From Candidatus Bathyarchaeota archaeon (GTDB lineage Archaea; Thermoproteota; Bathyarchaeia; Bathyarchaeales; Bathycorpusculaceae), in NCBI GenBank assembly GCA_963775685.1, contig CAVZJV010000014.1:1536001-1600000 (forward strand): 64,000 bases of DNA. Reading direction: 5' to 3'. The notes beneath the pieces were generated by a model. The model was not told the DNA's origin, searched no databases, and saw only the letters and a list, made by a program, of their open reading frames with translations. This document shows, piece by piece, positions 2,154 to 15,236 of the stretch. Position 1 is the first letter of the stretch, and each line of letters starts with the position of its first letter. The translations under genes were made by a program, and so were the position numbers.

Positions 2154-3080
2154 TTGAGCGTCATGACCGCACCAGTTAAAGATACGGCGGAAAGAATAAG
2201 AAAACTCCAAGTTCAAGGCGCAAGAAACGTCGCCATAGCCGCCGTCAAAGCAATCATAACCCAAGCAGAACAATCAAACGCAAAAACCAAAAACCAATTC
2301 CTCGCCGAACTCATAGAAGCCCAAACCATCTTCGCTACCGCCAGAGAAACCGAGCCACTGATGAGAAACGCCATCCGATGGCTAATCACTCAATCCCAAG
2401 CCATCATCGTGGAAAAAGTTGAGACATTAAACCAAATCGTAGTTGCAAACGCTAACCAATTTCTCAAAGATTTGGAAGATTCAAAAGAACACATAGCAGA
2501 AATTGGAGCTAAACGAATAAGCGACGCCGCCACAGTTTTTACTCATTGCCACTCCTCAACCGTCACTAGACTCCTCGCAAAAGCAAAGGCAGGCGGCAAA
2601 AACTTCAAGGTAATCTGCACTGAAACCCGTCCTGCATTTCAAGGAAGAATAACTGCCAAAGAACTTGTCGATTTAGGAATTGAAACTACGTTTATTGTGG
2701 ATTCTGCTACTCGAACTTTCATGAGAGAGGTTGATTTAGTAATCGTTGGAGCCGACGCCATCACCTCTGAAGGAAACGTGGTCAACAAGATCGGGTCAGG
2801 CGGAATCGCCGTTTTAGCCCATGAAGCCAGAGTGCCCTTCTACGTGGTTTCGGAACTACTCAAATTCGACCCTGAAACTCTTGCAGGCGGATATGAAAAA
2901 ATCGAACAACGTAGTTCAGCGGAAATCTGGGACGAAGCACCCTCAAAGCTCGCCGTGCGAAACCCCGCTTTTGACATCACCCCAAACCGATACATTAACG
3001 GTTTAATCTGCGAAGAAGGCATAATCGCCCCACAATCAGTAGTTGAGGTTACGCGACGAAATTACCCATGGATCTTCTAG
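2154..3080 (+). CDS. Ribose-1,5-bisphosphate isomerase (eIF-2B family)
   Basis: THCHS (catalytic Cys), ETRP, VGADAI, NKIG, NPAFD; adjacent to RuBisCO and AMP phosphorylase. Confidence 0.9.
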   Translation: MSVMTAPVKDTAERIRKLQVQGARNVAIAAVKAIITQAEQSNAKTKNQFLAELIEAQTIFATARETEPLMRNAIRWLITQSQAIIVEKVETLNQIVVANANQFLKDLEDSKEHIAEIGAKRISDAATVFTHCHSSTVTRLLAKAKAGGKNFKVICTETRPAFQGRITAKELVDLGIETTFIVDSATRTFMREVDLVIVGADAITSEGNVVNKIGSGGIAVLAHEARVPFYVVSELLKFDPETLAGGYEKIEQRSSAEIWDEAPSKLAVRNPAFDITPNRYINGLICEEGIIAPQSVVEVTRRNYPWIF

Positions 3081-3254: not shown

Positions 3255-4478
3255 TCAGATTTTCCATTGGTTTAGTGCTGAGGCGAGTTCTGGGTGGTTT
3301 TTGGCGTACTCGTTGAGGTTTTTTCCATATAGAGTTGCATCGACGGCTTGGCGCATAGCTTTGGCGCCGCAGATTGTGCCGTCTGGGTGTCCATGGATGC
3401 CACCGCCTGCTTGAATAACAAAGTCATTGCCAAATGTCTCTATCAACGCAGGAACAAGACGTGGGTGCAGCCCGCCGCTGGCAACGGGCAAAACAGGTTT
3501 CAAATCGCCCAATTCGGATTTGCAGGCAACAATGTTCTCTAAGACCTCGGCTTTGGTTTCTGACATTTTGCCCACCACAGTGCCCACGTGGAGTTGGTCA
3601 ACGCCGATTATCCTTGCCACTGACACGATAGGTTTCATAGCTATACCATGGAGGTGACTCTTGGTAAAAGCCGCATGCCCAGCGCGATGTGCATGAAATA
3701 CGAGCTTGAAATTCTGGTCCCTTAACGTCTGCAAGGATGACCAGCCGCATGTCAAGATGTCAACCATCACATATTCGCCACCATGGTCAACCACAGTTTG
3801 GGCACGCTTAAGCATGAGGTTGGTTTCCGCGGTGATGTTTATCATGTAGACTTTGCATTCGCCTGTCTCCTCTTGCGCTTTATCGCGGCTCTCCAGTGTC
3901 TGCGTTAAACGTTCTTCGAAAGGGTTGAAGCTTTGATTACTCAGGTTTTCATCGTCCTTTACTATGTCGCAGCCTCCGAACCATGCCTCATATGCGACTT
4001 TAGCGTGATCTTTGGTTTCTAACCCCAGTTTCGGCTTGATTATTGTGCCGACGAGGGGTCGTTTTTGGATTTTTAGTAGGTTGCGAACTCCCGGTATGCC
4101 AAATGCTGGTCCTTTGAAGCTGGCGAGAAGATCTTTTGGAAAGTCTATGTCGAGGAGGCGAAGGTTTTTTAATGATTTAAGCCCAAAAACGTTTCCAGCT
4201 ACACTGCTCAGAATGTTTGGCATGTTTGCTGGCTCAAAGAGCTCATGAGGATATGCAATTTTTACGATACTACCTTCAATGCCATAAACGTGGGCTGCTA
4301 GCTGCTTAACATAGGGCCTCTCGGTCGTAAGTTCGGTCCAAGTGCCGACTGAGCTTTCCGCTGCCACACCACCTGCAGCCTCTTTAAGGCTTATACCTTC
4401 AGGCTCAATTTGGAAGGTGCAAATTAAGTCAGTCTCTATTGGCTTGTAGTTTAAATCAACAAAGTCAAGGTACTTCAA
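3255..4478 (-). CDS. rbcL: Form III RuBisCO large subunit
   Basis: AESSVGTW, IIKPKLG, DIVKDDE, HAHRAGH, QLHVGTVVGKM, ASGG and QAGGG; the full catalytic set is present. Confidence 0.95.
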   Translation of the reverse strand: MKYLDFVDLNYKPIETDLICTFQIEPEGISLKEAAGGVAAESSVGTWTELTTERPYVKQLAAHVYGIEGSIVKIAYPHELFEPANMPNILSSVAGNVFGLKSLKNLRLLDIDFPKDLLASFKGPAFGIPGVRNLLKIQKRPLVGTIIKPKLGLETKDHAKVAYEAWFGGCDIVKDDENLSNQSFNPFEERLTQTLESRDKAQEETGECKVYMINITAETNLMLKRAQTVVDHGGEYVMVDILTCGWSSLQTLRDQNFKLVFHAHRAGHAAFTKSHLHGIAMKPIVSVARIIGVDQLHVGTVVGKMSETKAEVLENIVACKSELGDLKPVLPVASGGLHPRLVPALIETFGNDFVIQAGGGIHGHPDGTICGAKAMRQAVDATLYGKNLNEYAKNHPELASALNQWKI

Positions 4479-4555: not shown

Positions 4556-6196
4556 GTGCCTCAGATGGAATTAAGCGTTGAAGTCCTAATGATTACCACG
4601 GGCGGCAGCAGAATCGCCCTCATTAGTGAACAAACAGCCAACATGCTAGGTGTGCATAGTTCGGACAGAATAAAAATCAGCTGCAAAAACCAAGAGATGA
4701 TAGCCATCGCCAACATAGCTGACTATTTTCCCCAAAACAGTATAGGACTCTACCGGGAAACCGTTGCTGCACTCGGAGTAAAGGAAGCTGAAACAGTCAA
4801 TGTGCAACTAGCGCCATTACCTGAATCACTCTTTAACATACGCGCCAAGCTTCATGGGGAACGGTTACGCGAAAAAGACATTGTTGCAATTGTGAAGGAT
4901 GTTGTTGAGCAACATTTGAGCACAGTTGAAATCGCCGCGTTCCTCACGGCGCTAAGCATCCATGGTTTAGGCACTGGAGAGACCGAAGCGTTGTCACGAG
5001 CGATGATTTCCACGGGAAAAACCATTGATTTCGGTAAAGGACCCATCTTAGACAAACACAGCGTCGGAGGAATCCCAGGCGACAAAACCAGTATGCTGGT
5101 CGTACCCATTGTGGCCGCGGCGGGATTTACGATTCCCAAAACCTCCTCACGCGCAATCACCTCTCCCGCGGGCACCGCAGACCGAGTAGAAACCCTCTGC
5201 CCAGTTAATCTATCCATCAAAGAAATAAAAGAAGTCGTCGCGAAAACCAATGGTTGCCTAGTTTGGGGAGGATCTTTGGAGCTTGCGCCTGCTGATGATC
5301 TCTTCATCCAAGTCGAATACCCATTGGGAATAGACCCCATGCTTTTGCCCTCAATCCTAAGCAAGAAGAAAGCCATTGGAGCAACACATGTCGTCATAGA
5401 CATCCCAACAGGTATGGGTGCCAAAATCAAAACACGAACAGAAGCCTACAGCCTGGCTTCGGACTTCGTAGATTTGGGGAAACGTTTAGGGCTAAACATC
5501 CAGTGTGCCTTAACTTTTGGCGAGCAACCACTGGGCTGCGGCATCGGACCCGCATTGGAAGCAAGGGAAGCATTATCAACTCTTATGGGTGGGGGGCCGC
5601 CTGACTTGCGCGAGAAAGCTATTGGCCTCGCAGGCATGCTCTTTGAAATGGTCGGAGTCAAAGATGGTCGAGTCTTGGCTGAAGAAATGGTTGATTCAGG
5701 CAAAGCGATGAAAAAGATGCGAGAAATAATCGGCGCACAAGGTGGAAATCCTTTGGTGACCCCTGAAGATTTGCCTGTGGGTCCAGAATCTACTGTGGTG
5801 CGCTCAGAGCGTCCTGGAAAAGTTCTCTGGCTAAGCACAGACGATATCGTGCGAATAGCGCGGGAGGCTGGAGCACCCAAAGAGAAGGGGGCTGGCGTTG
5901 TTTTACATGCAAAATTAGGAGGAGCGGTTCATAAAGGTGGCATACTCTTCGAAATCTACGGTGAGAGAGGCAGCAAGTTGGCATCGGCGCTCGAGCTTGC
6001 GGGAAAACTCTCCCCAATTGTGCTAAGCAAAAAACCAGAGGAAAAAATGATTCTAGACAAAATACCAGAGAAAACCACACATGAAAAAGCGTTCATGTCT
6101 AGACAGGTAAACACTTTGCTATTTTGTTATTGCTCCGCCAATTACGCCACCTATAGCTGCAAGCACTGTAACAGCGACAGCGAGAACAATGCCTAA
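4556..6196 (+). CDS. AMP phosphorylase (archaeal thymidine phosphorylase family); natural end probably 6110
   Basis: N-terminal extension, DKHSVGGIPGDK, KTSSRAITSPAGTAD, AREAGAPKEKGAG; the tail after residue ~514 looks frameshifted. Confidence 0.92.
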   Translation: MPQMELSVEVLMITTGGSRIALISEQTANMLGVHSSDRIKISCKNQEMIAIANIADYFPQNSIGLYRETVAALGVKEAETVNVQLAPLPESLFNIRAKLHGERLREKDIVAIVKDVVEQHLSTVEIAAFLTALSIHGLGTGETEALSRAMISTGKTIDFGKGPILDKHSVGGIPGDKTSMLVVPIVAAAGFTIPKTSSRAITSPAGTADRVETLCPVNLSIKEIKEVVAKTNGCLVWGGSLELAPADDLFIQVEYPLGIDPMLLPSILSKKKAIGATHVVIDIPTGMGAKIKTRTEAYSLASDFVDLGKRLGLNIQCALTFGEQPLGCGIGPALEAREALSTLMGGGPPDLREKAIGLAGMLFEMVGVKDGRVLAEEMVDSGKAMKKMREIIGAQGGNPLVTPEDLPVGPESTVVRSERPGKVLWLSTDDIVRIAREAGAPKEKGAGVVLHAKLGGAVHKGGILFEIYGERGSKLASALELAGKLSPIVLSKKPEEKMILDKIPEKTTHEKAFMSRQVNTLLFCYCSANYATYSCKHCNSDSENNA

Positions 6197-8721: not shown

Positions 8722-8841
8722 TCCTTAGTCTATAAACTATATTACCATATAGAAATTCAAAAATCAATTACTCTGAACAAAAACGGGAAAAAAGTTTATT
8801 GTTAAATGAGATGGATAGTTTTGGAGACTATGAGTTCGTGT

Positions 8842-10251
8842 TTATTTTTTGTCGGTTAGGTATTCTTGCATTGCTTTGGCAGCGCGTTTGCCTGCTCCCA
8901 TTGCGCTGATGACTGTTGCTGCTCCTGTCGCGACGTCTCCGCCTGCATAGACGCCGTCTAGGCTGGTTTTGCCAACTTCGTTAACGCATATGGTTCCGTG
9001 TCTGGGGTCGCTTTGTAAGCCGCCTGTGGTACGTTGGATTATGGGGTTGGGTGTTTGTCCGATGGCGATGATGACTGTGTCAACGTCCATTGTGAATTCG
9101 CTGCCTGGAACCTCTTTGACGCTTCTTCTGCCTTTAGCATCTGGTTCTCCGAGTTCCATCGCGATAACTTTCATTGCTTTAACCCATCCTTTTTCGTCAC
9201 CGTAGAATTCGAGTGGCGCTGCAAGGAATTTGCAGACTAAGCCTTCTTCTTCAGCGTTTTCAATTTCTTCGTTTCTTGCAGGCAACTCGTTTCTGGAGCG
9301 TCTGTAGAGTAAGCATACTTCACTTCCCAGTCGCATGCTACTTCTTGCGCAGTCCATAGCTACGTTTCCACCACCGATGACGACCACTTTTTTGCCGATG
9401 CGTAGGGGAGTATCGTACTCGGGGAACAAGTACGCTTTCATAAGGTTAACGCGTATCAGAAACTCGTTGGCAGAATAGATACCTCCCAAGTTTTCACCGG
9501 GGCAACCAGTAAACTGAGGCAAACCAGCGCCACTTCCGATGAAAACTGCGTCGTAACCGTTCTTCATGAGTTCAGGGATAGTATGGATTCTACCGATCAA
9601 GTTGCCCAAGCGCAAGTCAACGCCAAGCTTCTGAACATAGTTAACTTCATTCTGAACAATGGCTTTGGGTAGACGAAACTCTGGAATCCCGTACATTAGT
9701 ACGCCTCCACCCACATGCAAGGCTTCGAACATGGTGATTTCGTGTCCGCGCTTAACTAGGTCCGCTGCAACGGTTAGTCCAGCGGGACCGGCACCAACGA
9801 TAGCTACTTTCTTACCTGTTGCTGGAGCTTTTGGCGGAAGTTGAAATCCATTGTCTCGTTCCCAGTCTGCCAAGAAGCGTTCTAAGCGTCCAATGCTTAC
9901 TGGTTCACCCATCTTGCCGATGACACATTTTTTCTGGCACTGCTCTTCTTGTGGGCAAACTCGTCCACAAACGGCAGGCAAGGCATTCTTTGTTTTAATG
10001 GCAGCTATGCCTTCACTGTACTTCTTTTCTTTGATGCATTTTATGAATGTTGGAATTGGAATATCAACTGGACAACCAGATCTGCATTGGGGATTTGGGC
10101 ATTGCAGACATCGGCTTGCTTCTTCTTGGGCTTCTGCTTCAGTGTAGCCTAAAGCTACCTCGCTAAAGTTTTTAGCGCGAACTTTAGGCTCTTGCTTTGC
10201 CATCTCTACGGCTTTTTTATTTAACTTTGGTTTAGGCTTTACTTCTGCCAC
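8842..10251 (-). CDS. nfnB: NfnB/SudA-type large subunit (GltD-like NADPH-dependent FAD/Fe-S oxidoreductase)
   Basis: RCLQC..PQC..GCP, CGRVCPQEEQC, GAGPAG, GGGNVAMD, YRR, GGDVATG; GTG at 10251 has GGAGG 8 nt upstream. Confidence 0.88.
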   Translation of the reverse strand: MAEVKPKPKLNKKAVEMAKQEPKVRAKNFSEVALGYTEAEAQEEASRCLQCPNPQCRSGCPVDIPIPTFIKCIKEKKYSEGIAAIKTKNALPAVCGRVCPQEEQCQKKCVIGKMGEPVSIGRLERFLADWERDNGFQLPPKAPATGKKVAIVGAGPAGLTVAADLVKRGHEITMFEALHVGGGVLMYGIPEFRLPKAIVQNEVNYVQKLGVDLRLGNLIGRIHTIPELMKNGYDAVFIGSGAGLPQFTGCPGENLGGIYSANEFLIRVNLMKAYLFPEYDTPLRIGKKVVVIGGGNVAMDCARSSMRLGSEVCLLYRRSRNELPARNEEIENAEEEGLVCKFLAAPLEFYGDEKGWVKAMKVIAMELGEPDAKGRRSVKEVPGSEFTMDVDTVIIAIGQTPNPIIQRTTGGLQSDPRHGTICVNEVGKTSLDGVYAGGDVATGAATVISAMGAGKRAAKAMQEYLTDKK

Positions 10252-11077
10252 ATTTACAACCTCCACTCATTTCTGACAATACTGAACTTAAACGTTCTTC
10301 AGGAAGCATCGTTCGTTGACGCAGAATTAACTCGTCAAAGTCAGTTTTGTGACCATCAAACTCTGGACCATCCACGCAACCAAACATCATTTTCCCGTCA
10401 ACTGTAACTCGGCAAACACCACACATGCCCATGCCGTCAATCATTATAGGCGTTAAAGTTACGATTGTTGGGATAGCAAAGGGTTTGGTGATTTCGCAGA
10501 CATCTTTCATGAGAATTACTGGACCCATAACAACGCAGCGGTCAAATTTTTCTGTCTTGAGTAACTCTTTAAGGAAATCTAAGCCTTTGTAGCCTCTGGA
10601 GCCATCATCTGTGGCAACGTAGACTTTGTCGCTTAGGGCTTTTGCTTCGTTTTCCATCATGATAAATTCTTTTGTTCGTGCCCCAAGGACCGTAGTGACT
10701 TTGTTGCCTGCTTCTTTCATCGCCTTAGCTTGCAACAACAAGGGGGCAATCATTACGCTTCCTCCTACACAAAGGACCTTGCCGAAGTTTTTGACTTCCG
10801 ACGGATTACCCAATGGACCAGTGACGTTATCGATTGATTCACCTTGGTTAAGCATTCCGATTCCTTTGGTAGTTTTGCCGACTTCATGGAAAGCAAAAGA
10901 AACTGTTCCTTTAGCTTGATTATACCCACTAATAGTTAAAGGCACACGTTCGCCAGTTTTACCGTGGATTACGATTAGGAATTGTCCAGCTTGGGCTTTA
11001 GCTGCAACATCTGGAGCTTCAACTTCGAAGAGTTTAATCTTGGGAACGAGTTCTGTTTTGTTTACTATTTTGTACGT
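10232..11077 (-). CDS. nfnA: NfnA/SudB-type small subunit (FAD, [2Fe-2S]); true start appears to be ACG at 11077
   Basis: The frame extends upstream of 10945 as (T/M)YKIVNKTELVPKIKLFEVEAPDVAAKAQAGQFL...GERVPLTI; DGMGMCGVCRV and CVDGPEFDGH present. Confidence 0.88.
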   Translation of the reverse strand, partial: TYKIVNKTELVPKIKLFEVEAPDVAAKAQAGQFLIVIHGKTGERVPLTISGYNQAKGTVSFAFHEVGKTTKGIGMLNQGESIDNVTGPLGNPSEVKNFGKVLCVGGSVMIAPLLLQAKAMKEAGNKVTTVLGARTKEFIMMENEAKALSDKVYVATDDGSRGYKGLDFLKELLKTEKFDRCVVMGPVILMKDVCEITKPFAIPTIVTLTPIMIDGMGMCGVCRVTVDGKMMFGCVDGPEFDGHKTDFDELILRQRTMLPEERLSSVLSEMSGGCKCGRSKA

Positions 11078-12291
11078 TTTGCAGTCGCCTCCACAGTTAC
11101 TTCACGTTTAGGTAAAGTACAAATTTTTTTATAGAAATCATCGAGTTTATGCTCAAAGTCGCCAGCGCATCTGGGTGACTCCTCGTAGAGTTCAAATCGA
11201 TCAAGCAACCCCAGCTTTTTGAGGACAACTTTCAGAACAGCTACATTGCGTTCTGCAGTGTCTCTGCCTTCTTGGAGTTTGCAGTCTTTAGATGAGCAAA
11301 CCACACCCATAACACCGTCAAAACCACAGTTTAACGCGTTTATTATGTGGACTGGGTCAAGGGATTTGAAGCATGGAACTTCCAGCGCCAACACATTTTT
11401 GCCCTCAAACGCCTTGTTTGGGGTGTCAAGAGCTGAAAACTCTGACCATTGACAAACGAATGCGAGAACTGCTGGACCTTTGCCCTTAGCTTTTAATTGT
11501 TCAAGCGATTTCCCGTATCTGTCTACGACTTCATCAAATTCGAAGCCTTTTACTTCGATTGCTTGGTGTGGACAAACCAGTTGGCATGCACCACAACCGA
11601 CACATTTTTCCTCGTTAACTTTGGGTGTTGCAAACGACTCAAATTCAAGAGCACCGTAAGGACATATGAAGATACATTTGTCGCAACCCACACAAGCTTG
11701 TACATCATAGACTGCTTTGCGAGAAAACTTTATTATTCTGACAGCGTTATCGTCAAAACCCAACTGTTTTAGAACATTTTTGGCTAACACCAATCGCCTG
11801 GTATTAATTTTTGTGCCTTCTTTGTAGCGACAGAATGGGTCTTCACATTGAATTGAAACGATGTTTTTTACTCCAGTGTTGAGGGCTTCAAATACGAAGT
11901 CGGTTGGAACTCTTCCTGCACAGGGCAAACGCAAAGCCATGTAATTATCAACTTTCAAGCCTTGCGCTTTAAGGATGTCCTGAACCTCGCCTGTCGATGG
12001 TGAGTTTCCTCGGCACATCAAAACCAGCGTTTCAGCATCATTTTTGGCTTTTTCCTGCGCCTTCTTCAGGTATTCGGACAGGTTATCGTAAGTGTAATAT
12101 TGCATTTTTATTGCTGCAGAGGGACAAGCACTATAGCATATGCCGCAAACCTGGCAGTCCTGACTATTAATTTCAACTTTGCCCGTTGAATCTGCCTTTA
12201 TAGCTTCATAGGGACAGATTGATTTACAGACATAACATCGGCTACATAAGTCCTGATCGATTTCCACTACAGCGAGACATTTTTCACTCAT
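11065..12291 (-). CDS. Tandem (2x[4Fe-4S] ferredoxin + MvhD/FlpD-like [2Fe-2S])x2 protein
   Basis: Four CxxCxxCxxxCP motifs and two MvhD-like domains (LMCRG..LPCAGRV..QCEDPFCRY.EG; FVCQWS..VPCFKSLDP..VCSSKDCKLQEG). Confidence 0.85.
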   Translation of the reverse strand: MSEKCLAVVEIDQDLCSRCYVCKSICPYEAIKADSTGKVEINSQDCQVCGICYSACPSAAIKMQYYTYDNLSEYLKKAQEKAKNDAETLVLMCRGNSPSTGEVQDILKAQGLKVDNYMALRLPCAGRVPTDFVFEALNTGVKNIVSIQCEDPFCRYKEGTKINTRRLVLAKNVLKQLGFDDNAVRIIKFSRKAVYDVQACVGCDKCIFICPYGALEFESFATPKVNEEKCVGCGACQLVCPHQAIEVKGFEFDEVVDRYGKSLEQLKAKGKGPAVLAFVCQWSEFSALDTPNKAFEGKNVLALEVPCFKSLDPVHIINALNCGFDGVMGVVCSSKDCKLQEGRDTAERNVAVLKVVLKKLGLLDRFELYEESPRCAGDFEHKLDDFYKKICTLPKREVTVEATAKRTK

Positions 12292-12401
12292 TTTGAACAC
12301 TCTTTTAATTCGCGTTTCCGGTGTTACCTTATGCTTCAGCACTTAAGCTTAAGCTCATTGAAAACATGAAAAGGGTTTTAGAATATTATAATCCTTTCTC
12401 T

Positions 12402-13340
12402 CTATTTTCTGTAATACGGTTGGCGAATGTAGCTGTAAGCTTCAAGCGCGGCTGTGATGCCTTGACCCACAGCAGTACCCACCTGCTTAACAGGGTGATT
12501 GGATACATCGCCTGCAGCGAAAACGCCCGCAATGTTGGTATGCTGGCGAATATCGATTTTGATGTAGCCATACTCGTCAGTCTCTATACCGCTGGCTTGG
12601 GCAATTTGGCTATTGGGAGCTTCGCCGACTTGCACGAAAACTGCATCAACTTCCATTTCAGTTGTTTTCTGCGTTGTGTTATCGATTATTGTGACTGTTC
12701 TTACTTGTTTATCGCCCTTAATTTCTTGAATTTCAGTGTTCCAGAGAATGTTTACGTTTCCCTTGGAGGTTATATCTGAAACCAAAGTTTCTTCCGCTCG
12801 GAAAGCTTGCCTTCTATGGATAACGGTGACTTGACCCGCAAGATCTGAAAGGTAAAGAGTAGTGATACAAGCAGAGTTTCCGCCCCCGACTACGACGACT
12901 TTTTTGCCCCTAAAGAATGGCCCATCGCAAACTCCACAGTAGCTCACCCCTTTCCCACGAAATTCTTTTTCACCCTTAGCTCCTATCTCTTTGTAGTGAG
13001 AACCCTGGGATATTATAACTGCTTTTGCCTCGTAGGTGGTTCTTATGGTTGTTACTAGTCTTTTTTCACCTGCCAGGTCAATGGCGGTTACTGGTTCAAT
13101 GTCGTGGATAATTACGCCGAGCTTTTTGGCATGGTTAGTCATTTTTTCTGCAAGTTCTCCACCGCTAATTTCCGCAAAACCTGGATAATTTACAACAGTA
13201 GGGGCATCAGAAATTGTTCCTCCAGCCAACTTTTCATCCAAAATAAGGGTTTTTAGTCCGCTTCGCACAGTGTAGATTCCTGCGGCTAATCCTGCTGAGC
13301 CCGCACCTATGATTATGACATCCCAATTCTCCATAAACAT
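12402..13340 (-). CDS. trxB: Thioredoxin reductase
   Basis: GAGSAG, GVSYCGVCDG, GGGNSA, HRR, AAGDV, QVGTAVGQG. Confidence 0.93.
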   Translation of the reverse strand: MFMENWDVIIIGAGSAGLAAGIYTVRSGLKTLILDEKLAGGTISDAPTVVNYPGFAEISGGELAEKMTNHAKKLGVIIHDIEPVTAIDLAGEKRLVTTIRTTYEAKAVIISQGSHYKEIGAKGEKEFRGKGVSYCGVCDGPFFRGKKVVVVGGGNSACITTLYLSDLAGQVTVIHRRQAFRAEETLVSDITSKGNVNILWNTEIQEIKGDKQVRTVTIIDNTTQKTTEMEVDAVFVQVGEAPNSQIAQASGIETDEYGYIKIDIRQHTNIAGVFAAGDVSNHPVKQVGTAVGQGITAALEAYSYIRQPYYRK

Positions 13341-13478: not shown

Positions 13479-15236
13479 ATGGCAAAATATAGGTGCACCG
13501 TCTGCAATTACGTTTATGATGATGCGAAAGAAAAAGTAAAGTTCACAGATTTGCCCAAAGAGTGGGTTTGCCCCGTTTGTGGAGCACCCAGATCAGTTTT
13601 CGTTTTGCTGGCGGAAATGTCCGAGAAGAAAACAGCTGAGCACACTGTTTCCGAAGTGCTCATTAACCAGATTGCCGAGTGGGGAGTCCAATACGTTTTC
13701 GGCATTCCAGGAACATCAACTTTGGGTGTAGTGGAAGCTATACGCAAAACCGATGGAAAAGTAAAATATGTTCAGGTTCGCCATGAGGAAACAGCTGCGT
13801 TTATGGCTTCAGCATATGGCAAGTTAACTGGACATGTGGCGGCTTGCCTTGGGATTTCCGGTCCAGGCGCAACCAACCTTGTAACTGGATTGTACGATGC
13901 GCAACTTGATCACTCACCAGTTTTAGCCTTAACAGGTTTGGTTCCACGCAAACAGATAGGTCAAGGTGCAATACAGGAAATTGACCAACAAGCGTTCTTC
14001 GAACCTTTGAGCGTATATAACAAAACTTTGATGACTGAAGACCAAACCACAACGCTTGCGACATTGGCGATTAAGCATGCGCTTCTGAATCAGGGTGTGG
14101 CGCACATTGGGATTCCCAATGATGTGCAAAAGTTGCCGTTTGAGGCGAAGATTCTGTCTTTCGAAGGAAGAATGCCCAATATGGCTTATGGACAGGAGGA
14201 ATGGATAGTTGAGAAAGCGGCAAAAGTCATCGATGAAGCAAAGAGGCCGGTGATTTTGGCTGGGTTTGGTTGCCGTGGTCAAGGCAAAAAGTTGTTGAAT
14301 TTAGCTTCCAAGTTATGTGCGCCGATAATATCTACTTTTAGGGCTAAAGGAGTAGTTGACGAAAACGATCCGCTCTATGTCGGGTGTCATGGCGGTGTCG
14401 GTTCGACCGCTGCTGGAACACTTATGGAAAAGGCGGATTTGCTCATCGCAATTGGTTCGTCGTTTTCCGATTTGTCGTTGATTCCGCAGAAACGAACGGT
14501 TCAGATTGAGATCAATCCATTGATGATTGCTCGCAGGTATCCTGTTGAGGTTAGCTTGCTTGGCAACAGTGCGATTTTAATTCCAAAGCTGACGGAGAAG
14601 GTTGCATTGAAGCAGAACAAAAATTATTTGGTTGAGATAAGCCAGTTAAAGCAGGCTTGGATACAACAACTGGATATAGAGTCGGATGCAACCCTGAAAC
14701 CCATTAGACCACCTTACATTATCAAGGTCTTAAATGACAAAATTGCAGACAACGCAATTATCTCTCTTGATGTTGGCGAGAACTGCTGGTGGTTTGGTAG
14801 AAACTTTAGGATGAAGAAGACGCAAAAACTGGTGATGAGCGGACAATTGGCTACAATGGGTTTTGGTTTACCTGGAGCATTAGCGGCTGCACTGGCCTAC
14901 CCTGAGAGACAGATTGTGTGTTTAACGGGCGATGGTGGTTTGACTATGGTTATGGGCGATTTCTTGACCGCTTTGAAATATAACTTGCCAGTCAAAGTAT
15001 TTGTTATGAATAACAAACGATTGGGGATGATTATGCAAGAGCAGAAAGTGGAGAGGTATGAGAGCTGGCAAACAGAGTTGCATGACTTTAGCTTCGCCGC
15101 TTTTGCTGAGCATGCAGGTGGTTTAGGCATCAAGGTCACTGAGCCAAGTGAGTTGGAAGCAGCCGTGGACAAAGCCCTCATAGCAAACATACCTACAATC
15201 GTGGACATTGACACTGACCCAAGAAGGTTTCTGTGA
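13479..15236 (+). CDS. Rubredoxin-fused pyruvate oxidase-like ThDP enzyme
   Basis: N-terminal CTVCNYVYD...WVCPVCG rubredoxin; [32 protein letters not shown]...NN. Confidence 0.88.

Follow-up and report, generated by a model that had tools for sequence, protein, structure and literature searches.

Free ferredoxin normally docks at the [4Fe-4S] clusters of NfnB, one of the two subunits of NfnAB, an electron-bifurcating flavoenzyme that acts on NADPH, NADH and ferredoxin. Enzymes of the NfnI type have been solved from T. maritima (4YLF/4YRY) and P. furiosus (5JCA). MvhD (or VhuD), a small [2Fe-2S] protein of about 140 amino acids, is the connector of the MvhAGD-HdrABC and FdhAB-MvhD-HdrABC complexes (5ODC, 7BKB, 8RVU), and in the HdrA2-type HdrA::MvhD fusion (NCBIfam NF040770, named after the Methanosarcina enzyme) a ferredoxin and an MvhD module form the C-terminus. 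An HdrA into which an NfnB/GltD domain has been inserted is also known from anaerobic methanotrophic archaea of group ANME-1 and from Bathyarchaeota, according to the available text of two papers (PMC12054007, PMC9012536). Here we describe a locus that brings such components together in a different way. The stretch of DNA analysed, referred to throughout as the window, comprises 64,000 nucleotides (nt) of contig CAVZJV010000014.1 (positions 1,536,001 to 1,600,000 of assembly GCA_963775685.1) and belongs to a soil archaeon of the class Bathyarchaeia with a 3.06-Mb genome that is 96.9% complete; its nearest relatives that carry a name are all labelled Bathyarchaeota or Bathyarchaeia. On its minus strand lie, in order, fdmvhD, nfnA and nfnB, the first of which encodes a doubled ferredoxin-MvhD protein, FdMvhD. 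We hold with moderate confidence that this operon encodes an orthodox NfnAB of the NfnI type with FdMvhD as a dedicated third subunit, most likely one that wires the [NiFe]-hydrogenase MvhAG to NfnAB.

The initial annotation of this locus had recognised three overlapping genes in one orientation, the first of them an internal duplication of a unit made up of a ferredoxin with two [4Fe-4S] clusters and an MvhD-like four-cysteine domain, followed by NfnA- and NfnB-type genes in a window free of HdrA, hydrogenase and GltB genes. Each of these observations has held. The reading frames of fdmvhD and nfnA overlap by 13 nt if nfnA starts at an ACG codon (see below), and those of nfnA and nfnB by 35 nt. 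In the protein encoded by fdmvhD the FlpD/MvhD family (PF02662) is matched twice by Pfam (whole-protein E 2.5e-36; 124.8 bits over two stretches against a cut-off of 22.3, and 78.7 and 51.6 bits in a scan of the genome), Fer4 is matched four times, and the two halves of the protein are 27% identical to each other over 163 columns (E 7e-22). An alignment of 56 sequences with identities down to 29% contains 24 invariant cysteines, 16 of which make up four CxxCxxCxxxC motifs while the other eight fall into two sets of four, one in each MvhD-like domain (Table 1). This pattern fits a predicted complement of four [4Fe-4S] and two [2Fe-2S] clusters, the number originally proposed. A Pfam scan of the 56 open reading frames of at least 130 amino acids in the window found no HdrA, hydrogenase or GltB gene; in the genome of this archaeon the GltB-like genes are located far from the operon.

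A confident AlphaFold2 model of FdMvhD (predicted local distance difference test score, pLDDT, 86; predicted template modelling score, pTM, 0.83) was compared with solved structures by Foldseek. The top match was the MvhD chain 5odc_D (E 4.8e-7, template modelling score relative to the target, TMt, 0.79, root mean square deviation 2.6 A over 132 columns), followed by 8rvu_F and 7bkb_F, with TMt values of 0.72-0.79 for the MvhD chains, and the predicted structure thus has the MvhD fold. In a phmmer alignment the cysteines of the C-terminal MvhD-like domain fall on cysteines of 5odc_D, although FdMvhD has a serine where the solved protein carries the second cysteine of a CxxC pair. No solved chain spanned the whole of FdMvhD in the Foldseek search, in which the score relative to the query (TMq) was at most 0.29. 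None of the 17 Pfam hits to FdMvhD belongs to a Pyr_redox or FAD family and the thioredoxin-reductase (TrxR)-like core of HdrA is therefore lacking. An identity as a polyferredoxin of the MvhB or FwdF type was considered and rejected, because the matches to FwdF and MvhB are confined to the ferredoxin parts and half of the protein is MvhD-like. No fusion proteins of 715-2040 amino acids containing FdMvhD were found at E <= 1e-40, a negative that is itself weak evidence, and a 712-amino acid open frame joining TrxR to FdMvhD at one locus (L023) proved to be artefactual, owing to a run of N. Public annotations of FdMvhD read "hydrogenase iron-sulfur subunit" or "F420-reducing hydrogenase delta subunit/ferredoxin".

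Both halves of FdMvhD have their best match in the HdrA2 model, at positions 573-749 (E 1.6e-53), the sole part of that model to be matched. Judged from such matches, FdMvhD consists of two tandem copies of the [ferredoxin + MvhD] module found at the C-terminal end of HdrA::MvhD. In a tree of these modules the N-terminal halves form one clade (support 100) and the C-terminal halves another (support 96), in both cases with members from operons linked to metV and metF included, and this indicates that the duplication was a single, early event. The C-terminal modules of HdrA proteins group with the C-terminal halves in the same tree (support 100).

NfnA and NfnB are predicted to be an orthodox NfnAB of the NfnI type. 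NfnB matches T. maritima 4ylf_B over its full length (E 8.5e-164) and P. furiosus NfnI-L 5jca_L (E 1.1e-152), contains Fer4_20 (E 1.2e-42) and Pyr_redox_2 (E 1.4e-34) domains by Pfam, visibly retains the iron-sulfur cysteine motifs and is the sole protein of the genome to exceed Pfam's cut-off for Fer4_20. NfnA aligns with 5jca_S (E 1.1e-74) and 4ylf_A (E 1.3e-72) from query residue 1-2 onwards, and both subunits are collinear with the solved NfnI chains end to end; the match to P. furiosus NfnII (5vj7_B) is weaker (E 2.5e-50). The DHODB_Fe-S_bind domain was found by Pfam (E 1.9e-10) and the block DG.GMCG.CRV...C.DGPEF is retained, and the D/C/C/C motif for the [2Fe-2S] cluster is visibly kept. 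The nucleotide loop of NfnA reads GGSVMIAP; the solved chains have GGGVGIA or GGGVGVA at this place, and the paralogues of the same genus that stand alone have GGLGTA.

The start of nfnA is unusual. An open reading frame finder places it at a GTG at 10945, giving a protein of 237 amino acids, but the N-terminus homologous to other NfnA proteins (YKIV...) starts at 11074 and there is no ATG, GTG or TTG between the in-frame TGA and that position. The codon in the start position is ACG, with a GGAGG motif 10 nt 5' of it. Among 110 loci (L008-L117) this position is occupied by ACG in 70, ATG in 29, GTG in six, TTG in two and another codon in three, with GGAGG at an equal spacing of about 10 nt in nearly all of them. 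In 57 of the 70 ACG loci the region from the in-frame stop to the ACG contains no canonical start, and in 62 of the 70 the nfnA start is nested inside the 3' end of fdmvhD. A programmed -1 frameshift at the AAAACG run, which would fuse FdMvhD to NfnA, was also considered; since the fdmvhD stop lies 5' of the ACG in three of the 70 loci and the frame offset does not fit in two more, ACG initiation is ranked above it. Initiation of nfnA at ACG is probably coupled to the termination of fdmvhD 10 nt downstream. With this start, the protein reported by open reading frame finders lacks its first 47 residues, and gene callers truncate nfnA in most of these genomes. The start position of nfnB is occupied by ATG, GTG or TTG in its orthologues.

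Gene order was followed in 201 genomes sampled from the class, from which the 30 best loci were taken, and in 80 contigs from named genomes with 5-kb flanks. Full-length doubled FdMvhD is encoded in 40 of the 201 genomes, with pieces at contig ends in a further three, and an NfnB-like gene is far commoner (150/201). In all 30 loci of the class sample and all 80 named contigs nfnA lies directly 3' of fdmvhD (110/110), across FdMvhD identities that range from 41% to 100%, and nfnB is next in order in 108 (29/30 and 79/80). The exceptions are one genome (G096) in which nfnB lies about 5 kb away and one contig end among the 80. The linkage of the ferredoxin-MvhD gene to nfnAB on which the initial annotation depended is therefore general, and at the level of genes this NfnAB departs from a purely two-subunit enzyme, with a third gene attached at every locus. 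Of 301 genomes sampled from the phylum, 16 gave full-length matches to FdMvhD, every one of the same class, and none was found in the roughly 257 genomes of other classes; among the genomes searched the family is confined to Bathyarchaeia.

Five operons that are 67-84% identical to this one stand on contigs labelled Acidoferrum, Limnocylindrales, Methanocella, Nitrososphaerota and Sulfotelmatobacter (L070, L087, L101, L103, L116). These labels are probably labelling or binning errors. The parent genomes of the contigs labelled Limnocylindrales, Sulfotelmatobacter and Methanocella carry fdmvhD (E ~1e-178). An Atlas look-up with the homologue P0004 returned candidate clusters of 387-388 amino acids with Fer4 and FlpD domains, mostly labelled Chloroflexota.

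The initial annotation had also proposed a further redox complex to which the adaptor links Nfn, and gene order in relatives is consistent with this, as hydrogenase genes stand in some operons with fdmvhD and HdrA::MvhD-type genes stand 5' of nfnAB in others. The hydrogenase operons occur among the more distant members of the family. In one genome (G006) the order on a single strand is mvhG-mvhA-hycI-fdmvhD-nfnA-nfnB; mvhG-mvhA-hycI-fdmvhD-nfnA is present in G012 and G096 and, by coordinates, in G070 and G084. A distant branch of the family is linked to metV instead. In 80 metagenome loci of this branch metV lies directly 3' of fdmvhD in 77, and the contig also carries mvhA in 27 and mvhG in 17, many of the contigs being short. 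Fuller contexts are seen in G178, where mvhA and mvhG are divergent from hycI-fdmvhD-metV-metF, in G041 and G069 (fdmvhD-metVF-mvhG-mvhA) and in G004, where fwd-like genes and mch are followed by fdmvhD-metV-metF. This arrangement suggests that the sister branch may encode an H2-linked methylene-tetrahydrofolate or -methanopterin reductase. At many metV-linked loci (L130-L134, L154-L233) an additional stretch of about 125 amino acids resembling HdrA::MvhD was seen just 5' of fdmvhD.

No free mvhD was found in the genome of this archaeon by a genome-wide FlpD scan, its FlpD domains being those of FdMvhD and of an 821-amino acid HdrA::MvhD fusion preceded by a polyferredoxin gene. Free MvhD is likewise absent from G006, G012, G096, G178 and G020, where FlpD domains are limited to FdMvhD and HdrA fusions of 776-830 amino acids. 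A hydrogenase cluster, hdrC-hdrB-mvhG-mvhA, lies at ~1217.8-1221.7 kb on the same contig as the operon, with mvhGA at ~1219.2-1221.7 kb, and has neither mvhD nor hdrA. A second [NiFe]-hydrogenase of group-3b-like type is encoded at ~1417.7-1421.7 kb (contig C14, L146), with its iron-sulfur and PyrK-like (HydB/HydG-like) subunits fused into a protein of 638 amino acids. A match to MvhA at E <= 1e-40 is present in 38 of the 40 genomes with full-length FdMvhD compared to 127 of 201 overall. Within the genus, MvhA is present in all seven genomes that encode FdMvhD, at 85-100% identity, and five genomes without FdMvhD show MvhA matches of 41-43% or none.

FdMvhD is encoded beside differing flavoenzymes and, in part of the family, inside Mvh operons, and it is for this reason that the locus is read as an Nfn extended towards MvhAG. 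FdMvhD would bind NfnAB, most likely at the two [4Fe-4S] clusters of NfnB, and its six clusters would form a path for single electrons, with the iron-sulfur end of NfnAB on one side and, on the other, a second enzyme bound through an MvhD domain, most likely MvhAG. The iron-sulfur chain on the ferredoxin side of Nfn would thereby be lengthened by six clusters, and at the NfnB flavin the complex would link H2/H+ with NADP(H) and NAD(H), soluble ferredoxin taking no part. A possible reaction is the reduction of 2 NADP+ by H2 and NADH, or its reverse. FdMvhD is most simply seen as a modular connector that would derive from the electron-output end of HdrA::MvhD and would serve NfnAB here and MetVF elsewhere. 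A bolder version, in which a soluble MvhAG-FdMvhD-NfnAB supercomplex couples H2 directly with NADP(H)/NAD(H) at a bifurcating flavin, free ferredoxin not being needed, and FdMvhD acts as a general two-socket plug through which one Mvh hydrogenase feeds interchangeable flavoenzymes (NfnAB here, MetVF in sister lineages), is offered tentatively, as an idea somewhat short of probable.

Several observations weigh against this reading. Within the NfnA-linked branch only five of roughly 34 genomes, belonging to two families, have fdmvhD adjacent to mvhGA, and the operon stands apart from mvhGA in this archaeon and in every one of the 20 class-sample genomes of its family that carry fdmvhD. The co-occurrence was counted on related genomes in which Mvh, Hdr and FdMvhD are gained and lost jointly, so that Mvh is not singled out. 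The five genomes of the genus without FdMvhD also give no match to P0001 at E <= 1e-20, which suggests that they lack the HdrA::MvhD fusion too, and the pattern is therefore that of a gene package and not of a specific pair. Two genomes with FdMvhD-NfnAB, G020 (100% complete) and G181, have no MvhA match at E <= 1e-40; in G020 there is just a 58-residue fragment of a [NiFe] large subunit at a contig end. Every genome examined also encodes an HdrA::MvhD fusion, which is potentially sufficient for MvhAG. At the low H2 pressures of soil, H2 is by estimate a weaker reductant than reduced ferredoxin. Finally, the use of NAD(H) by NfnA is not assured, because its nucleotide loop deviates from those of the solved NfnA chains.

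The main alternative, or an extra partner, would be heterodisulfide reductase. The enzyme that FdMvhD ties to NfnAB would then be HdrA::MvhD with HdrBC, a module of the heterodisulfide-reductase type, and not a hydrogenase. This would give an NAD(P)H-dependent Hdr for which FlxABCD-HdrABC of sulfate reducers offers a comparison; MvhAG could join such a larger assembly. We regard this as unlikely. In several other families of Bathyarchaeia the order is hdrC-hdrB-hdrA-hdrA2-nfnA-nfnB, with an hdrA product of about 440 amino acids and an HdrA2-like protein of about 720 that ends in a ferredoxin and an MvhD module and whose gene holds the same position 5' of nfnAB as fdmvhD. These clusters (L118-L122, from G077, G162, G135, G060 and G100; annotated fully for L119, partially for L118 and L121 and by matching sizes of open reading frames for L120 and L122) point to a putative Hdr-Nfn assembly with two flavin sites. 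Monophyly of the FdMvhD-linked NfnB proteins is unsupported, as the NfnB tree requires three changes, and the Hdr-linked NfnB nest with FdMvhD-linked NfnB of family f5 (support 99/96). The grouping of the C-terminal halves of FdMvhD with HdrA modules noted above is of the same tendency, as are hdrC/hdrB-like genes 3' of nfnB at one locus (L142) and an HdrC-like gene there at two others (L141, L145), the clustering of mvhGA with hdrCB in this genome and the published HdrA with an NfnB/GltD insert. However, FdMvhD has no flavin-binding HdrA core, the HdrA of this archaeon already has a fused MvhD and a polyferredoxin neighbour, no hdr genes were found in the window scan and the larger operons that contain fdmvhD bring with them mvhGA and hycI, not hdrA.

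It is also conceivable, and we think distinctly improbable, that FdMvhD serves no second enzyme and that NfnAB keeps it for its own use, as a tethered ferredoxin or a store of electrons that replaces soluble ferredoxin or trades electrons with it. Ferredoxin is normally a substrate of Nfn, the gene order is fixed, and in the family of this archaeon the operon is self-contained, with a T-rich end past nfnB and no gene for a partner in the window. In the solved complexes (5ODC, 7BKB, 8RVU), however, MvhD domains are seen only as connectors of two enzymes, both four-cysteine sites of FdMvhD are invariant throughout the family, and elsewhere FdMvhD sits with MetVF and in mvhGA operons. That the genes are mere neighbours, with FdMvhD working with some other enzyme and sharing only its regulation with nfnAB, is very improbable: gene adjacency is by itself weak evidence for binding, but here it is unbroken down to 41% identity, it is accompanied by the 13-nt overlap and the nesting of most ACG starts, and the stand-alone nfnAB of the same genus form a separate paralogue clade (support 100/100).

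The features of the operon favoured here as an Nfn extended towards MvhAG are collected in Table 1 together with its borders. An alternative start for fdmvhD, a GTG at 12342 upstream of the ATG, would give a protein of 425 amino acids. The T-rich run past nfnB is likely to be an archaeal terminator that closes the operon. A TATA-like TTATAATA is present ~85 nt 5' of the fdmvhD ATG and because of this the operon may have its own promoter. The thioredoxin-reductase-like gene 5' of fdmvhD, which scores 342.7 bits with the NCBIfam TRX_reduct model against a cut-off of 343.45, is found there on the same strand in 72 of the 80 named contigs and 18 of the 30 class-sample loci, and its product could be supplied by NADPH from the proposed complex. 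A CxxC and an HRR-type NADPH motif were spotted by eye in this protein. Beyond it a gene for a rubredoxin-fused thiamine pyrophosphate (TPP) enzyme is divergent (13479-15236, plus strand), as it is at 58 of the 80 loci. Elsewhere in the window genes for a form III-like RuBisCO large subunit (3255-4478, minus strand), an IF-2B-family, ribose-1,5-bisphosphate isomerase-like protein (2154-3080, plus strand) and an AMP-phosphorylase-like protein (4556-6196, plus strand) are grouped, a trio that we take to be the archaeal AMP salvage set.

Table 1. Features of the fdmvhD-nfnA-nfnB operon and its borders, in window coordinates.
Feature	Position	Strand	Basis and remarks
Thioredoxin-reductase-like gene 5' of fdmvhD	12402..13340	-	Pfam; NCBIfam TRX_reduct E 1.3e-102
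fdmvhD, doubled [2x[4Fe-4S] ferredoxin + MvhD] protein, 408 amino acids	11065..12291	-	ATG start; stop TAG 11065-11067
FdMvhD ferredoxin domain 1, residues 9-66, two CxxCxxCxxxC	12094..12267	-	Pfam Fer4; C16, 19, 22, 26, 46, 49, 52, 56 invariant
FdMvhD MvhD-like domain 1, residues ~85-180, C93, C124, C149, C154	11752..12039	-	FlpD match G000:C14:1547701-1547967; phmmer 7bkb_F E 8.2e-8
FdMvhD ferredoxin domain 2, residues 193-250	11542..11715	-	Pfam Fer4_21 residues 211-263; C200, 203, 206, 210, 230, 233, 236, 240 invariant
FdMvhD MvhD-like domain 2, residues 272-395, C280, C307, C332, C337	11107..11478	-	Pfam FlpD residues 292-409; phmmer 5odc_D E 2.5e-9
GGAGG Shine-Dalgarno-like motif, 10 nt before nfnA start position	11088..11092	-	Sequence reading
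nfnA, PyrK-like FAD/[2Fe-2S] subunit, 281 codons from ACG 11075-11077	10232..11077	-	Homology to solved chains
nfnB, GltD-like subunit (two [4Fe-4S], FAD, NADPH), 474 amino acids, GTG start	8842..10266	-	Pfam and homology
T-rich run 3' of nfnB stop	8777..8795	-	Composition only; likely terminator

The reading of this locus as a hydrogenase-linked NfnAB bears on the question of how H2, ferredoxin and NAD(P)H are kept in balance in Bathyarchaeia, which in soils and sediments rank with the most abundant archaea yet to be cultured. A hard-wired Nfn, if true, would be a novel use of a textbook bifurcating enzyme and would provide a function for a gene annotated merely as encoding a "hydrogenase iron-sulfur subunit".

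Compared with the known systems, NfnA and NfnB are alike end to end with NfnAB of the NfnI type, and the locus differs in its additional co-translated iron-sulfur gene product, in the GGSVMIAP loop and in the ACG start of nfnA. FlxABCD-HdrABC and the group 3b sulfhydrogenases combine a PyrK-like NAD(P)H flavoprotein and iron-sulfur subunits with an MvhD-like subunit (Flx) or a [NiFe]-hydrogenase (sulfhydrogenase); to our knowledge neither contains a GltD-like NfnB or a doubled ferredoxin-MvhD. With the MvhD/VhuD connector FdMvhD has in common PF02662, present twice, the predicted fold and the four cysteines, but its 408 amino acids hold two copies of a unit in which an MvhD domain is joined to a 2x[4Fe-4S] ferredoxin, and the neighbour of its gene is nfnAB, not hdrA. 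The C-terminal ferredoxin and MvhD of the HdrA2-type fusion are likewise shared, whereas FdMvhD is without the TrxR-like flavin core and without the N-terminal or inserted ferredoxin domains. Neither a doubled ferredoxin-MvhD nor an MvhD-linked NfnAB was found described in the full-text literature as far as available, including PMC6085437, PMC11631310, PMC12054007, PMC9012536, PMC6405883 and PMC5736913, a body of text that does not extend to supplements or most subscription journals; FdMvhD as a third iron-sulfur protein of NfnAB is thus apparently undescribed. In the methylene-tetrahydrofolate reductase complex MetFV-HdrABC-MvhD of Moorella and Sporomusa, an MvhD connector appears, from the available text, beside MetV and MetF (PMC5736913, PMC9430772), as in the distant FdMvhD branch; the known complex has a single-domain MvhD with HdrABC, whereas that branch has the doubled protein near mvhGA, and the flavoenzyme of the window is NfnAB. 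The nearest published item, going by the portions of its two sources that were available, is the HdrA with an inserted NfnB/GltD domain. There, as proposed here, an Nfn-type flavin module is wired to iron-sulfur modules of the HdrA/MvhD type, but NfnB is fused into HdrA, whereas at this locus NfnAB is an intact enzyme of its own and HdrA is no part of the connector.

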